A stretch of 64,000 bases of DNA, taken from positions 256,001 to 320,000 of the forward strand of contig CAWCYI010000004.1 of NCBI GenBank assembly GCA_963799845.1, given 5' to 3'. Positions 24,048 through 47,048 of the stretch are shown here, piece after piece (the first letter of the stretch is position 1; each line of letters begins with the position of its first letter). A model generated the notes under the pieces. That model was not told the DNA's origin and did not search any database. It saw nothing but the letters and a program-made list of their open reading frames with translations. This stretch comes from an uncultured Nitrososphaerota archaeon (GTDB lineage Archaea; Thermoproteota; Nitrososphaeria; Nitrososphaerales; CADDZS01). A program made the translations under genes and the position numbers.

Positions 24048-24155
24048 GCAGTTTCCGAAAAAATTCCAGAATGCTGCTGAAGATCTCTTCCAGATTGCCT
24101 CAAATGACTTCCATCGAGATGAATTCCGTGATGATTCATTTTCCATAGGACCTTT

Positions 24156-24284
24156 TCTTCTTCTCGTACCTGGACCCGTTTGCAACCCAAAGCTATTGTT
24201 TAATCTTCATTGATTTATTATGCCATTTTTGCCCTTTTCTGCACGGGGGCGCAATTCTGCGTACCGACGAGCTCGTTTCAAGCT
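24156..24284 (-). repeat. Dispersed ~130-bp repeat, copy 1 (inverted relative to 46830..46959)
   Basis: Core AGCTTGAAACGAGCTCGTCGGTACGCAGAATTGCGCCCC...CATAATAAATCAAT differs from copy 2 at 3 of about 75 positions. Confidence 0.92.
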
Positions 24285-24485
24285 GTTACACGAAGGGGGC
24301 CCCTAGTAGAGTTCTGCAACCGTGAGCTTGTTCCCGTTAGATCGGTTTCCTTCAGCTCGTTTCAACCTCTGATTTCTGATGAGCGCAACAATGAAAAAAT
24401 GTGCTGATTTTGCATAAACGTTCATGTTCAGTGCAAAAAGATATCCTGAAATCTTCAAGTATTTTGAATCGAAGCTCGAAGACCT

Positions 24486-29944: not shown

Positions 29945-30002
29945 GTTGCTATGTTGATTTCTATACCTCATCGTTCAACAAATATCTAGCCATGTCCAGG
30001 AC

Positions 30003-30716
30003 TTGACCAAACAGATGGAAAGAATCGGAAGGATATCGAAGATCAGGCGCTACCCGGTCAAGAGCATGATGGGAGAGGATCTTGCAAAAGCTATTCTGGC
30101 ACCTTACGGAATGGTCGGAGACAGGGTCTATGCTTTCATCGATGATCAAAATCACAATCCCCGATTCCCGTGGATGACGGCAAGGAACGCAAATGAAATG
30201 CTCCTCTTCAAACCCAATTTTCTTTCCGATAAAGAGGTCGTCGTGAGATCGCCAAGCGGAAGAGAATATTCCATCACTGATCCAGCCCTCGAGAGGTACT
30301 TTGAAGAAAAGTACAACTTCCGGATGACGTTGAAGTATCGCGAGAGCGGCTGCCATGATTCAAAGCCCGTCTCCCTCATCAGTTCACACACGATCGAGAG
30401 CCTGGGAGGGGAGACCGGATTGGAGCTTGCCGGAGAGCGGTTTCGCGCAAACATTTACGTTGACTGGGATAATCGGATGCCCTTCTACGAGGATGAGCTT
30501 CTAGGAAGGGAGATCACGGTAGGAGATGGAGTCATCCTCAAAATTGTAAAGAAGGACTCGAGATGCGTCATACCGACTCTCGACCCGCGCACAGCGGCAG
30601 CCTCACCAATCATTCTGCAGACGATCCAGAAGAACCACGGTGGTTGCACGGGAGTTTACGCCGAGGTGGAAAAGCCTGGCCAAATCAATCTGCGTGACGA
30701 AATATTCGTGCCCTAA
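30003..30716 (+). CDS. MOSC-domain protein (YcbX-like)
   Basis: RYPVKSM.GE, GDR, RFRANI, ED, RC. Confidence 0.92.
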   Translation: MTKQMERIGRISKIRRYPVKSMMGEDLAKAILAPYGMVGDRVYAFIDDQNHNPRFPWMTARNANEMLLFKPNFLSDKEVVVRSPSGREYSITDPALERYFEEKYNFRMTLKYRESGCHDSKPVSLISSHTIESLGGETGLELAGERFRANIYVDWDNRMPFYEDELLGREITVGDGVILKIVKKDSRCVIPTLDPRTAAASPIILQTIQKNHGGCTGVYAEVEKPGQINLRDEIFVP

Positions 30717-30718
30717 AG

Positions 30719-31648
30719 TTATTTCTCCTTGATCAGGTTTCGCGGCATCATCATCCCGACGACCCAGTTCGGCCGGTCCACGATCTCGTGCGTGCGAAGC
30801 TCACCCGCAACCGAGCAGAGCATGTAAGCGTGCTCTCGGGAAATTCCCAGATTTTTCTCAAGAAACGAGATCATGTTCCGGAGGGCCTGCTTTGTCGCGA
30901 CCATCAGATCTGGGGAAATTCCCGTCGTACCAAAATATCCCGTACTCGGGCCGAACAGTGGCTTTGAATAATACTGGGGCGTCTCTAGGTTTGCGCTCTT
31001 TCTCAGATCAAACGTGAGCGTCACGTCTCCGGGGCATTCAATAGCCGTCACGCATACTTCGCCATCACCCTGAGCCGCATGGACATCGCAAGTCGAAAAC
31101 AGCGCTCCCTTCGTCCACACTGGAATCAGTACTTTGGATCCAGCCGTCAGGTGTCTGATGTCCATATTTCCGCCGTGCTTGCCGGGGGGCATGACATCGA
31201 AGTATCCGTCCTCCGGCGGCGCCACTCCGAGCACGCCGCAGAATGGGTTGATCGGGATCTGAAGCCGCTTGACAAAACTCGCATACTTTCGAGGACCGCG
31301 AAGATTCCAGACGAAGAGCTCCGGGGTAGCAAACTCTTCGAGGAGTCCCAGGCCCGGCATCACTCCAGTCCATCCCCAGCTCGCGGGTTTTACGGATTCG
31401 ACGTTCACTACGAGAGCATCTCCCGGTTCAGCACCCTCGATGTAGACGGGGCCAGCCAGAGGATAGAGTTTGGACTCATCCATCTTTGCCAGATCTTCTA
31501 CCTTTGATTTCTCCGTCACCTGCCACGATGACACTTCATTGACTTCAAAGTGAACTCTGTCTCCTGGCTTTACAGTCAATACCGGTTCGTGGGATTTGCT
31601 CCACTTATAATGAAAAGTATCTTTCTTGATCACGTTTGTTCTGGGCAT
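30719..31648 (-). CDS. Acetamidase/formamidase family protein
   Basis: GPVYIEGAEPGD, GGNMD, DVHAAQGDGE, AIE. Confidence 0.95.
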   Translation of the reverse strand: MPRTNVIKKDTFHYKWSKSHEPVLTVKPGDRVHFEVNEVSSWQVTEKSKVEDLAKMDESKLYPLAGPVYIEGAEPGDALVVNVESVKPASWGWTGVMPGLGLLEEFATPELFVWNLRGPRKYASFVKRLQIPINPFCGVLGVAPPEDGYFDVMPPGKHGGNMDIRHLTAGSKVLIPVWTKGALFSTCDVHAAQGDGEVCVTAIECPGDVTLTFDLRKSANLETPQYYSKPLFGPSTGYFGTTGISPDLMVATKQALRNMISFLEKNLGISREHAYMLCSVAGELRTHEIVDRPNWVVGMMMPRNLIKEK

Positions 31649-31759
31649 TCGTCGCAGTCGGACGAGAAAGAAAGCAGCGATTTATGTTAATCGCAGCGAG
31701 GTCTTAATTACGAGTTTTCATTGATTCTTAAAGAAAAAAATTCTATCGTTTCGCAACCG

Positions 31760-31868
31760 CGCGTACCTTTTGACGGGAGAGCTACGTTCAAGCTCTGTAA
31801 GCTCAGAAGAGCTTGAAACGAGCTGAATGGAGCTCACAGAGCTCGAAACGAATTGAACGTCGGCACAT
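31760..31868. repeat. AGCT-phased palindromic/tandem repeat related to the dispersed repeat
   Basis: AGCT at 31780, 31791, 31800, 31810, 31821, 31831, 31840; arms AGCTACGTTCAAGCTCT and AGAGCTTGAAACGAGCT; imperfect 30-bp tandem unit. Confidence 0.85.
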
Positions 31869-32123
31869 AGCGTTCTCGACAATCGTCGAGTTGATCACTT
31901 CGTATTGGATTTTCGAGTTTTCGAGGATGTTCTGAAAATTTTAAACGCTATACCAGATCTTTGCTCGAGAGTCTTACGTATGCAGAACTGAATTTTCTCT
32001 AGGTTTCTGCGCATGTGAGCGCTTTTTGGGCACCTGCTTTCTCCAATTGAAACAGCTCGATTCATGACCTTTTTTCCCTGACCAAAACTCTGAAAGCGCC
32101 TTAATCCTTTCAGAGTTAAGCAA

Positions 32124-33026
32124 ATGACTCAAGTCGAGATCATCGGCGTCCCACTCGATCTCGGGGCAGACAGAAGGGGTGTTGACATGGGCCCCTCTGC
32201 CATCAGGTACTCCGGCCTGTCAGAGAAATTGAAGGCCCTGGGCATCAAAGTTGAGGACAGGGGAAACATCGAGACGCCTATCGCAGAGGCGATCAAAGTG
32301 GAGTATTCGAACGCAAAGTATCTCTCTAATGTCAGGGGAGTCTGTCTCCGCCTCTCGAGGGAGGTCTCTGCGTCTCTGAAACAAAACAAGATCCCGATAG
32401 TTCTGGGAGGAGACCACTCGATTGCTATCGGTACTCTCGCCGGGATTCATAACGGAATGAAGAACGAATTCGGTGTCATATGGCTGGACGCGCACGGTGA
32501 TTTCAATACCCCGAACATTACTCCGAGCGGAAACATTCACGGCATGAGCCTAGCATTCTCCGCGGGTCAGGGCTCGAAATGGTTCCCCAGCCCTCCCTGG
32601 CCAAAGAGATCCGTAGATCCCAAGAAGATCGCAATCGTAGGCGCAAGACAGCTGGACCCCGCCGAGCGAACGAACCTGAAAGAAATGGGTGTTCGAGTTC
32701 TCTCTATGGAAGACATCGATAGATCAGGAATGAAATCGATCATGTCAGAAGCGATAAGTCTCGCATCAAGCGACGGGCAGAATAAGATCCACGTCAGCCT
32801 CGACATGGACCTTCTGGATCCGACAGAGGCGCCGGGAGTTGGAACACCGGTCAGGGGAGGCGTGACATACAGGGAAGCGCATCTTGCGATGGAGATGATA
32901 TACGAATCCGGGCTAATGAAATCTCTCGAAGTTGTCGAGGTGAACCCGATCTTGGACCAGCAGAACGCCACGGCGGAACTCGCGGTCGAACTGATTCTCT
33001 CGGCGATGGGGAAGCGAATAATATGA
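32124..33026 (+). CDS. rocF: Arginase
   Basis: GGDHS, DAHGD, SGNIHGM, SLDMD, EVNP. Confidence 0.96.
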   Translation: MTQVEIIGVPLDLGADRRGVDMGPSAIRYSGLSEKLKALGIKVEDRGNIETPIAEAIKVEYSNAKYLSNVRGVCLRLSREVSASLKQNKIPIVLGGDHSIAIGTLAGIHNGMKNEFGVIWLDAHGDFNTPNITPSGNIHGMSLAFSAGQGSKWFPSPPWPKRSVDPKKIAIVGARQLDPAERTNLKEMGVRVLSMEDIDRSGMKSIMSEAISLASSDGQNKIHVSLDMDLLDPTEAPGVGTPVRGGVTYREAHLAMEMIYESGLMKSLEVVEVNPILDQQNATAELAVELILSAMGKRII

Positions 33027-33082
33027 CGAAAACTGATATCTGGAAAGGTTTTAATCCCTAATTCAGACCATTGATATTTGCG

Positions 33083-33292
33083 ATGCCTGAACAATCATGT
33101 CCAGAATGTGGGGCTTCGCTGTTCTATGACACCTCTACCAAGAGATATGCCTGCAAGGGTTGCGGTCTGTACGTTACAAAGGACGAGCTCGTTAACATCA
33201 GGGATAAACTTCACAACCAGACGGACGAGTCCAGGAAGAAAAGGGCCCAGCAGAGCGAATATCTGGAGTGGTGGCTGTCCTCCAAAAAGTAG
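33083..33292 (+). CDS. Small Zn-ribbon protein
   Basis: CPECG...CKGCG; ends EYLEWWLSSKK. Confidence 0.8.
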   Translation: MPEQSCPECGASLFYDTSTKRYACKGCGLYVTKDELVNIRDKLHNQTDESRKKRAQQSEYLEWWLSSKK

Positions 33293-33365
33293 CAAGCCTC
33301 AAGTTACCGAGACTGGGAAACCTTCGGGTTTCACCAGTTATTTTAGAAAAAACAATTAGAGCGGA

Positions 33366-33683
33366 TTACTGTTTCGAAGAAAGGTTCACTTCAATGAAAA
33401 CGTCTTCAGGGACGCGCAGTCTCATGAGCTGTCGCATCGTTCGATCATCCGCATCAAGATCAATCAACCTTCGGTGTATCCTCATCTCCCATTTATCCCA
33501 GGTTTTTGTACCCTCGCCGTTCGGAGACTTCATAGTGGAAATCTGCAATTTTTTTGTAGGAAGCGGCTGAGGACCCTTGACCTTTACCCCAGTTTTTTCC
33601 GTAATGTCCTTGATCTCCTTGCAAACATCTTCAAGGCCTCTCAAGTTCGTACTGGTTAATTTAACGCGCGCAAAAGTTGCCAT
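33366..33683 (-). CDS. rps10: 30S ribosomal protein S10 (uS10)
   Basis: GPQPLPTK, SPNGEG, WEMRIHRR. Confidence 0.97.
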   Translation of the reverse strand: MATFARVKLTSTNLRGLEDVCKEIKDITEKTGVKVKGPQPLPTKKLQISTMKSPNGEGTKTWDKWEMRIHRRLIDLDADDRTMRQLMRLRVPEDVFIEVNLSSKQ

Positions 33684-33761
33684 TTTCTTCGCTCTTTAAC
33701 TCTGCTCAAGGCAATCTGTCCGCATGCCTATTTAGTCTTAACTCAATTGCAGGGTGGTACG

Positions 33762-34449
33762 ATGCAGAAAGATACAACGCCCAGGAAAAAGTACAGGTTT
33801 GACCTTTCTATAGACCTCACTCATCCGTTGGAAAACGAAATGCCGGTTTATCCCGGAGATCCTTCACCGTCATTTGAGCCGGCCGCGACAATCGCAAAGG
33901 ACGGGTCAACTTGACGCGAATGACGCTTGGCTCGCACACGCGTACTCATATGGACGCACCGGTCCACTTTATTCCGAGTGGATTGGGATCGACCAGATCC
34001 CCGTTTCAAGTCTTTTTGGAGAAGAGCTTGTCCTCGATCTTTCCTCAAAGCCTGTCGGGTCTCGAATTTCAGCCAGCGACCTCAGAGAAAAGCTGGATGT
34101 CCTAGTCCAGAAGGATGATTTTGTCCTCTGCTATACCGGCACGAGCGATCTCTGGGGAAATCCGAAAGCGAACTCGAACTTTGGTTATCTTTCGGTTGAT
34201 GGTGCAAAATATCTTGTGTCATAGAAAATCAGGGCTTTCGGAATAGACTCTTTGAGTGTGGAAGAGTTCCATGACCGAGGCGCGCCCACCCACAAGATGC
34301 TGCTCTCAAACGGGATCTTTATCGTGGAATCACTGTCAAAGGAATTGAAGCGCATTTGCGGAAAGCGGATTTTTTTCATAACACTGCCGATAAGATTGAA
34401 GCCCGGAGACGAGGCTCCCTGCCGAGCCATTGCTGTTCCTGTAGAGTAA
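33762..34449 (+). pseudogene. Cyclase/kynurenine formamidase family, disrupted
   Basis: IDLTHP, YPGDP, HTRTHMDAP, GIDSLSVE, H..LL...E; frameshifts in G-runs at about 33904 and 33986; in-frame TAG at 34222. Confidence 0.8.
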
Positions 34450-46552: not shown

Positions 46553-46810
46553 ACCCTACGGTAGAAAACAGATATCCAAAGATCTTGACGGGGATCGGTA
46601 TATACGGATTGTGCCTCGTTTAGCATCAAATCGCCAGGATCTTAGCTCGAAAACAGCTGAAAATCGGGTTCGGGAGTTTCCCTGAGTTCACCGGACTCGT
46701 TTTGAGCCCCGTCTGTTGTGGTTTTCAGGTGCGTCGAAAAGACCTGCGTAAGTCAAAGATTTCCAAAATAATTCTAAACGGGTCTGCTCTAACTAAAAAT
46801 CTCAAAATCA

Positions 46811-46959
46811 AGCTGTTTCAATCCATCAGAGCTTGAAACGAGCTCGTCGGTACGCAGAATTGCGCCCCGTGTAGAAAAGGGCAAAAACGGCATAATAAAT
46901 CAATAGAGTAAAACAATGGCTTTAGGGAGCAAGGCAGGTCCAAAGGTACGAGAAGAAGA
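46811..46959 (+). repeat. Dispersed repeat copy 2, with palindrome AGCTGTTTCAA-N11-TTGAAACGAGCT at its start
   Basis: Matches the reverse complement of 24156..24284; includes a TATA-like CATAATAAAT and the start of a 29-aa ORF (46916..47005). Confidence 0.92.
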
Positions 46960-47048
46960 CCTGACCATTTGCAAAATACGGAAATTCTTTCCCGAAAGTC
47001 AATAAAAACTCGGACGCAAGCTATCGTTTCGATAGTGTCTTTTGAAAG

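Follow-up and report, generated by a model that had tools for sequence, protein, structure and literature searches.

The stretch of DNA analysed here, referred to as the window, comprises 64,000 nucleotides of the genome of an uncultured soil ammonia-oxidising archaeon of the order Nitrososphaerales (G000; 4.6 Mb in nine contigs, 86.7% complete), and corresponds to C4:256001-320000. In a spacer between two divergent genes it holds an array of seven AGCT tetranucleotides (31780-31843) placed about one helical turn apart. This array is almost certainly the conserved core of a single copy of a repeat that is interspersed, mosaic, non-coding and confined to one lineage, and that resembles the repetitive extragenic palindromes (REPs) and bacterial interspersed mosaic elements (BIMEs). 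At insertion sites shared between species, the AGCT tetramers and their spacing are fixed while the spacers between them diverge, flip and swap; therefore, what is constrained is probably the AGCT palindromes themselves, lined up in a row along one helical face. Judging from the sequence comparisons, this row would most likely act as a platform offering many sites to a protein that recognises AGCT in double-stranded DNA. The complete statement, i.e., that repeat identity together with the protein platform, is put forward tentatively, at somewhat below an even chance.

A repeat family with a helically phased AGCT core

The AGCT sites of the array start at 31780, 31791, 31800, 31810, 31821, 31831 and 31840 (spacings 11, 9, 10, 11, 10 and 9), exactly as an earlier, sequence-only reading of this DNA had stated. 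The inverted repeat and the imperfect 30-bp tandem described there are also present: the arms of the former (31780-31796 and 31808-31824) are 17 nt long and 82% complementary, and the two parts of the latter (31808-31827 and 31838-31857) are 85% identical. The array consists of concatenated 9-12-bp units, each starting with AGCT, and three units make up a super-period of 30-31 bp; the units occur in either orientation, which renders the region strongly self-complementary (single-stranded DNA folding of 31770-31870, z = -4.9). According to Poisson arithmetic, about 0.01 clusters of at least seven AGCT within 64 bp would be expected per genome, whereas 15 exist in G000, together with one cluster of six sites, and all 16 fall in catalogued copies of one repeat family, in both orientations. 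An origin of the array by chance, which the sequence-only reading had named as one way in which its proposal could fail, is excluded.

Searching G000 with the window copy by nhmmer gave 58-64 matches with a sharp left boundary at about 31702-31705, and long copies extended to 32030 and beyond. The family was then catalogued with iterated nhmmer profiles for three modules (left/array, central and right), which had 143, 13 and 24 matches, respectively; these merge into 83 loci with a 400-bp join and 84 loci with a 150-bp join, a lower bound, as a few array-like fragments lie outside the catalogue. Thus, the array is one of 83-84 dispersed intergenic copies, and the REP-like repeats that had been offered as an alternative reading proved to be the apt description. 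A more complete copy on contig C1 shows that the full unit is about 445 bp long. Approximately nine loci contain all three modules, and most of the others have either the left/array module alone (about 160 bp) or this module fused directly to the right module, like internal-deletion derivatives; copies range from 160 to 450 bp, their modules are combined in various ways, and the array core is found in either orientation. G000 contains 54 occurrences of the 15-mer AGCTTGAAACGAGCT or its complement, and 52 of these fall in or within 150 bp of catalogued loci.

Based on crude calls of open reading frames (ORFs), whose coverage is about 81% on the two main contigs (70-82% when all nine contigs are considered), 67 of the 84 loci do not overlap any ORF and eight are overlapped over more than half of their length. 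Viewed in the direction of the element, its neighbouring genes diverge at 21 loci, converge at 25 and are co-directional at 37, with one locus at a contig end, compared with 663 divergent, 418 convergent and 1235 co-directional background spacers of at least 100 bp; the loci are therefore in modest excess between convergent genes (25/83 vs 418/2316), with no orientation bias. No neighbouring gene family recurs at the copies (the largest cluster comprises 5 of 322 neighbours). A coding origin was rejected because no frame is consistently open across the 11 long copies, and decayed coding tandem repeats, the other possible failure that had been named for the proposal, are accordingly not the source of the array. 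A CRISPR array was rejected as well, since the period is about 10 bp (30 bp per three words) and there are no unique spacers.

With 29.3 sites per kb in the elements and 4.3 per kb in the remaining intergenic DNA, AGCT is 6.8-fold denser in the family, and no other palindromic tetramer exceeds 2.5-fold in the same comparison; the other tetramers reported to be methylated in the order are not notably enriched in the elements (GATC 0.55-fold, GTAC 1.87-fold and CGCG 1.82-fold). Within the family, distances between AGCT sites concentrate at 9, 10, 11 and 12 bp (58, 67, 98 and 23 pairs), at 19-21 bp, at 30 and 31 bp (116 and 49 pairs) and at 40-41 bp. Outside the family, AGCT spacing displays codon periodicity only, with 87 pairs at 10 bp and 96 at 11 bp against 90 expected for each. 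The genome scan for AGCT periodicity that had been suggested as a check thus finds phasing inside the family and none outside, and helical phasing belongs to the repeat rather than to the genome. In line with this, two of the four additional AGCT pairs that had been pointed out in the window, 24270/24281 and 46830/46841, lie inside two further family members, whereas 23014/23024 and 46644/46655 lie in unique sequence and are compatible with chance (five non-family pairs at spacing 10-11 in the window vs about 2.4 expected by our own arithmetic).

The family is restricted to a subclade of one Nitrososphaerales genus. BLAST matches to the element were found in four of the 31 genomes of relatives searched, all of the same genus: G000 itself and its congeners G003 (30 matches), G005 (two) and G006 (one weak match). 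A five-site pattern fixing only AGCT and the spacing 11-9-10-11 occurred in two of the 301 sampled genomes of the order, 13 times in G000 and 10 times in G003, and its reversed control occurred in none of the 301. (These two tallies and the congener transposase scan described below include one unpublished genome, G001, of which only "no match" rows were used.) The exact 35-nt array pattern was found at six places in a genome collection, all in a single Nitrososphaerales record, and at 13 metagenome loci, with no match in viral contigs; the flanks of the six places in that record are 79-84% identical to G000.

No terminal inverted repeats join the ends of a full-length copy. By eye, no target-site duplication was seen at the boundaries of long copies, a test weakened by their ragged right ends, and no conserved tetranucleotide flanks the left boundary. 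An autonomous relative with the same ends was not found in G000, and the extra left-end profile matches turned out to be family copies into which unrelated DNA had inserted. In two copies (L050, C6:336606-339017; L051, C4:886256-886852), other mobile DNA interrupts the left module at the same A/T tract. The insertion in L050 has inverted ends of about 25 bp, an 8-bp target duplication and an ORF of 205 aa that belongs to no known family. A 1.5-kb IS110-family element (PF01548 and PF02371) has in turn entered this insertion, and another copy of the element, 99.6% identical in DNA and 100% identical in its transposase, is located at C4:1287262-1288773. Remnants of similar insertion ends were present at the same position in the copies at C4:152250-152444, C4:656306 and L011. 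Mobile DNA thus appears to have inserted into the repeat recurrently, a behaviour also known from the REPs of bacteria.

Shared insertion sites, spacer rearrangement and turnover

Loci from G003, G005 and metagenome contigs were positioned on G000 via their flanks. At seven of the 12 informative external loci (C4-52.7k, C4-125k, C4-152k, C4-1356k, C4-1519k, C6-715k and C7-63k) the element is present at the same place in G000, with flanks 79-88% identical. Over these seven pairs, differences are found at 5 of 140 positions in AGCT columns, compared with 39 of 175 in spacer columns, and the spacing is kept; when the rearranged pair L048 is left out, the counts become 1 of 128 and 31 of 161. The view that the AGCT sites are what matters in the array, expressed by the sequence-only reading, gains support from this difference. 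In the four cleanly aligned pairs, the arrays are identical at 146 of 158 positions (L029 being excluded because a 1-kb indel misaligned its global alignment; local alignments cover it), compared with 80-85% identity for coding flanks, 36-77% for the rest of the element and 25-88% for other intergenic DNA. Mean identity between paralogous arrays is 0.78 within G000 and 0.79 between genomes, and orthologs are closer to each other than paralogs are, which argues against homogenisation within the genome; the shared-site arrays also carry site-specific rare states, as judged by eye. These comparisons speak for vertical descent under constraint rather than for within-genome homogenisation.

The spacers change not only by substitution. 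At C4-1519k, compared with the commonest arrangement, a 7-nt word is flipped in G000 and the adjacent 15-nt block is flipped in G003, with the AGCT sites staying within 1 bp; of 34 paralogs, 15 have the 7-nt word in its TGAAACG-type form and 11 have the complement. Two 12-nt cassettes have traded positions on either side of an 18-nt unit at C4-1356k, an arrangement that would result if 30-bp units were gained and lost, and at C4-52.7k the orthologs keep different internal parts. The flipped blocks are bounded by short inverted repeats.

Such rearrangements bring up the main rival, a neutral or selfish quasi-palindromic repeat without function, which we regard as possible though rather unlikely. 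On this account AGCT is not read by anything, the period follows from the roughly 10-bp words and the 30-bp unit, the junctions are kept by arm-templated correction, and the spacer flips are the well-known hairpin-loop inversions. It agrees with the mosaic structure, the internal deletions between repeated words and the ragged right ends, with the inverted repeats around the flipped blocks, with the strong single-strand folding of both strands, with the lineage restriction of the phased pattern (2 of 301 genomes) and the modest excess of convergent spacers, and also with the variable presence of the element described below. However, a neutral repeat would be expected to decay like other intergenic DNA, and the AGCT columns differ by only 3.6%, against 22% for the spacers and 15-20% for the coding flanks. 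In addition, arm-templated correction should also protect the spacers inside the arms, yet these vary, and copies within a genome are no more alike than copies from different genomes, so that homogenisation is not evident.

Several points weigh against the protein platform. Neither a protein binding the arrays nor a transposase or other partner linked to the family was identified. The period of about 10 bp could follow from how long the duplicated words are and, AGCT being self-complementary, hairpin-templated repair or template switching at quasi-palindromes could keep the junctions without any protein; the strong folding of the arrays on both strands (38 copies) may instead reflect a hairpin or cruciform role. 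Three of the seven shared sites are structurally rearranged, and the count of AGCT against spacer differences, made on seven pairs, was conditioned on chains intact in G000 and scored flips as spacer differences. Moreover, the family is missing from most of the congeners searched, and thus cannot have an essential function; the congener genomes are mostly fragmented and 58-87% complete, and assemblies of this kind lose repeats.

At the remaining five of the 12 informative loci, the element is not at the same place in G000, and two of these have an element 1.7-4 kb away. The spacer that holds the window copy, between a formamidase-like gene and an arginase gene, measures 115 bp in the congener G002 and has no element. 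In the congener G004 the same spacer (L017, G004:C71, 1084-1519, equivalent to window 31697-32068) is occupied by unrelated DNA, about 436 bp in length, that contains a short ORF on the minus strand; the flanks of both congeners are too diverged to place the element boundaries to the base. By eye, this ORF resembles a truncated SnoaL/NTF2-like protein, a candidate assignment. Conversely, at C6:830324 and C6:631795 related species have the element and G000 does not, with only one flank alignable in each case. Taken together, the shared and empty sites indicate that insertions are old enough to be shared by species with 79-88% identical coding flanks, and that they also turn over.

Two further observations were made at such loci. 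Next to the second of these empty sites, the 158-nt stretch C6:631638-631795 (L056) is 88.6% identical to positions 1-158 of L003 (G005); it is G+C-rich and possibly structured, with no Rfam match at gathering score. Alignability stops with this stretch, directly after which G005 has a diverged repeat copy and G000 has none. In the metagenome contig L035, a repeat copy lies between regions that match C6:474043 and C4:1493890 of G000, i.e., different contigs and far from their ends, so that a synteny break between the L035 organism and G000 coincides with the repeat.

AGCT methylation and possible readers of the array

The sequence-only reading had taken AGCT to be the modified motif, for which published work on the order gives support. 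According to a REBASE survey, a persistent orphan N4-methylcytosine (m4C) methylase for AGCT is found in eight of eight Nitrososphaerales and 14 of 14 Nitrosopumilales genomes, and the survey suggests for these methylases a common epigenetic function that is still unknown (PMC10609329). In two marine Thaumarchaeota metagenome-assembled genomes, 82-91% of AGCT sites are modified, as reported in another study (PMC8919816). In our case, the DNA letters alone give no sign of modification, because AGCT is neither depleted nor enriched genome-wide in G000 (20,817 sites, 4.52 per kb, observed/expected 1.10; 277 sites in the window against 242 +/- 15 in shuffles); the most under-represented palindromic tetramers of G000 are TATA and TTAA (observed/expected 0.71 and 0.70), followed by GGCC (0.85). 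The N6_N4 methylase family has 12 matches in G000, whose specificity is not readable from sequence. Since AGCT is the reported target of an orphan m4C methylase in the order, each 64-bp array could carry up to 14 methyl groups, and the repeat family would have spread such AGCT platforms between genes in one subclade of the genus. On the other hand, the phased pattern occurs in only two of the 301 sampled genomes while AGCT methylation is reported order-wide, and therefore the pattern cannot be what the methylation is conserved for.

The analogy with SeqA, drawn by the sequence-only reading, was not borne out, and neither a replication-origin nor a SeqA-type device is supported. In such a device, hemimethylated AGCT clusters would be sequestered after replication, controlling origin firing or a nearby promoter, for which the reported methylation and the helical phasing of the sites might be adduced. 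However, the 83-84 copies are dispersed and none is near the single orc1/cdc6 match (C4:1319359), the nearest ones being about 36 kb (C4:1355927) and 168 kb (C4:1151346) away; by eye, the copies on contig C4 do not switch orientation around this gene. Moreover, no match to the SeqA family (PF03925) was found in G000 at its 86.7% completeness, and the phased pattern is absent from 299 of the 301 genomes. We consider this explanation extremely unlikely.

Archaeal histones wrap about 30 bp per dimer and 60 bp per tetramer. Seven phased sites over 60-64 bp with a 30-bp super-period match these wrapping lengths, and G000 has one histone gene, at C6:540183-540368; the arrays could therefore be domesticated, epigenetically marked chromatin sites that position a histone tetramer or recruit a reader of m4C/AGCT at about 80 intergenic places, a variant to which we give a low probability.

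A role at the RNA level is improbable to a similar degree. The left module could act as a promoter for a hairpin-rich small RNA or untranslated region, or its T runs together with the hairpins could act as terminators or stabilisers. The left end matches a strand-specific TATA-like motif of G000 and points into the element, T runs occur on both strands of the left module, the loci are somewhat commoner between convergent genes, and the arrays fold much more stably than shuffled controls do (mean z of -2.6 and -3.1 for the two strands, 38 copies). However, the folding is equally strong on both strands, and the alifold consensus structure of 38 left/array copies is negligible on either (-3.8 and -3.4 kcal/mol). 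In about 11 of 34 copies the longest stem is disrupted by a flipped 7-nt word, and changes in the stems are, by eye, not consistently compensated. The array is separated from the putative start site by the T runs, the copies have no orientation bias relative to neighbouring genes, and in the window Rfam has no match at gathering score (best local E-values 0.15 and 1.7, at chance level).

As a further possibility, the folded array could be a single-stranded DNA hairpin signal, recognised by a Y1 (HUH) transposase of a system of the REP-associated RAYT type or the IS200/IS605 type, which would spread the element. The element is palindromic and lacks terminal inverted repeats and target duplication, as in such systems, and G000 has two Y1 transposase genes. 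However, both belong to IS605-type units beside TnpB matches (C4:749.8-751.2 kb and C6:728.2-729.6 kb). No family copies flank them, the closest one lying about 3.7 kb away, and the module profiles have no match at these loci; none of the 15 TnpB-type matches of G000 flanks a copy either. No Y1 gene was found in six congeners (58-87% complete), including G003 with its at least 30 element matches, and, as noted above, no conserved tetranucleotide flanks the left boundary. We judge this system very unlikely to be involved. An insertion sequence of about 1.2 kb occurs at C4:751277-752490 and at least eight other places in G000, in 97-99% identical and older, 84-85% identical copies, and one copy adjoins each of the two IS605-type units.

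Palindromic repeats scattered through the genome are familiar from bacteria, and the AGCT repeat of G000 can be set beside several known systems. Like the REPs and BIMEs of enterobacteria and pseudomonads, it consists of short imperfect palindromes in tens to hundreds of extragenic, non-coding copies, forms mosaics with other motifs in variable order and orientation, and is a recurrent target of insertion sequences (here, two copies are split). It differs in being archaeal and modest in copy number (83-84), in having as its palindromic part a 60-75-bp row of phased tetranucleotide palindromes rather than a single stem-loop of 20-40 bp, and in lacking an associated RAYT-type Y1 transposase. Furthermore, REPs at shared sites differ between E. 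coli and Salmonella, whereas the arrays of the G000 family are kept across species at shared sites.

The miniature inverted-repeat transposable elements (MITEs) of Sulfolobus and the palindrome-associated transposable elements (PATEs) of haloarchaea are likewise small, non-coding, dispersed and intergenic, include deletion derivatives with shared end modules, and vary in presence between species; unlike them, the G000 family has no terminal inverted repeats, no visible target-site duplication and no autonomous partner sharing its ends, and its right ends are ragged. Correia repeat enclosed elements (CREE) of Neisseria are also abundant intergenic repeats with promoter-like ends that leave genes undisrupted, but they have terminal inverted repeats and a TA duplication and no phased tetranucleotide array. 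The GATC clusters bound by SeqA at E. coli oriC and the dnaA promoter share with the array several methylatable 4-bp palindromes about one helical turn apart, whereas the G000 family is a mobile-type repeat away from the origin, no SeqA homologue was found, and the mark would be m4C instead of N6-methyladenine (m6A). Finally, in chloroplast hairpin-loop inversions and quasi-palindrome template-switch mutations, segments bounded by short inverted repeats are turned around between close relatives, like the 7-nt word and the 15-nt block of the arrays; these are a mutational mechanism rather than an element family, and they explain the flips but not the conservation of AGCT.

Our literature searches found no description of such a repeat family in ammonia-oxidising archaea, and a survey of thaumarchaeal mobile elements (PMC6563490) never mentions "MITE", "non-autonomous" or "miniature". 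The design is unusual, namely a conserved, helically phased row of 4-bp palindromes with invariant sites and freely flipping spacers, and this very palindrome is, according to published work, the target of an orphan methylase retained order-wide. If a protein reads the arrays, they would be a natural high-density substrate for finding the role of AGCT methylation in globally important nitrifiers; if none does, they would be a clean example of quasi-palindromic repeats evolving by in-place inversions. Under the chromatin variant, they would be the first case in archaea of dispersed cis-elements that are dense in methylation and have a role in chromatin.

Anatomy and surroundings of the window copy

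The window copy as a whole spans about 31702-32068 and is longer than first reported, comprising the left module, the array, the central module and remnants. The left module (31702-31779, plus strand), whose left boundary is sharp in 41 aligned copies, begins with a TATA-box-like octamer (31702-31711), followed by a conserved CATTGATTC (31719-27), an A/T tract (31730-42) and a variable G+C-rich box (31754-67), after which a T run leads into the array. The octamer is A/T-rich and varies among copies, resembles the strand-specific hexamers enriched 26-45 nt before start codons in G000, and points into the element, with T runs following it on both strands. Variants of the G+C box define subfamilies, and positional orthologs do not have the same box; it was considered as a hairpin, and as some variants are interrupted palindromes and the commonest one is not, it was treated as subfamily variation.

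The array itself (31780-31843, no strand assigned) has AGCT-bounded words of 5-7 nt between its seven sites, and 15 other loci have arrays of 6-8 sites. The left/array module ends on the plus strand with a GAAACGAATTGAACG-type tail (31844-31860), and short copies stop at matches to about 31859-31871. The central module (31875-31997, plus strand; nhmmer match C4:287875-287997), possessed by only 13 loci, contains a CTCGAC/GTCGAG palindrome and a tandem of the 8-mer TTTTCGAG (31910-31925). Alignment with 12 long copies identifies 32004-32068 (plus strand) as a partial second G+C-box/T-run unit and a remnant of the right module (CAATTGAAACAGCT). Most of the right module, including its GGGGCCCC palindrome, is lacking, and the module map of this copy shows left and central modules only.

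The copy sits between two divergent genes, an acetamidase/formamidase-family gene on the minus strand (30719-31648; NF045496 at 132 bits, under the curated cut-off of 500) and an arginase gene on the plus strand (32124-33026; TIGR01229 rocF at 306 bits, against a cut-off of 227.6). A motif upstream of the formamidase-like gene (31683-31696) is common to G004 and G002, and the copy begins just after it; sequence in common with G004 resumes at about 32069, just past the copy.

Contigs from four runs of soil DNA, compared with 30900-32900, gave neither a joint nor an empty site, and pieces from run X1 end inside the element at 31776 and 32041. The runs listed for 30000-34000 included none recorded as RNA. 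The repeat family breaks short-read assemblies of these genomes. Summed over the four runs, depth was higher in the array bins, which is not a measure of copy number.

The two further family members of the window contain the AGCT pairs mentioned above: one at 24151-24370 on the plus strand, with a variant left module and a right module (profile match C4:280202-280365), and one at 46709-46963 on the minus strand, of a variant left-module subfamily (profile match C4:302806-302905). These two variant-subfamily members are inverted relative to each other, 22 kb apart, and flank the segment with the copy studied here.

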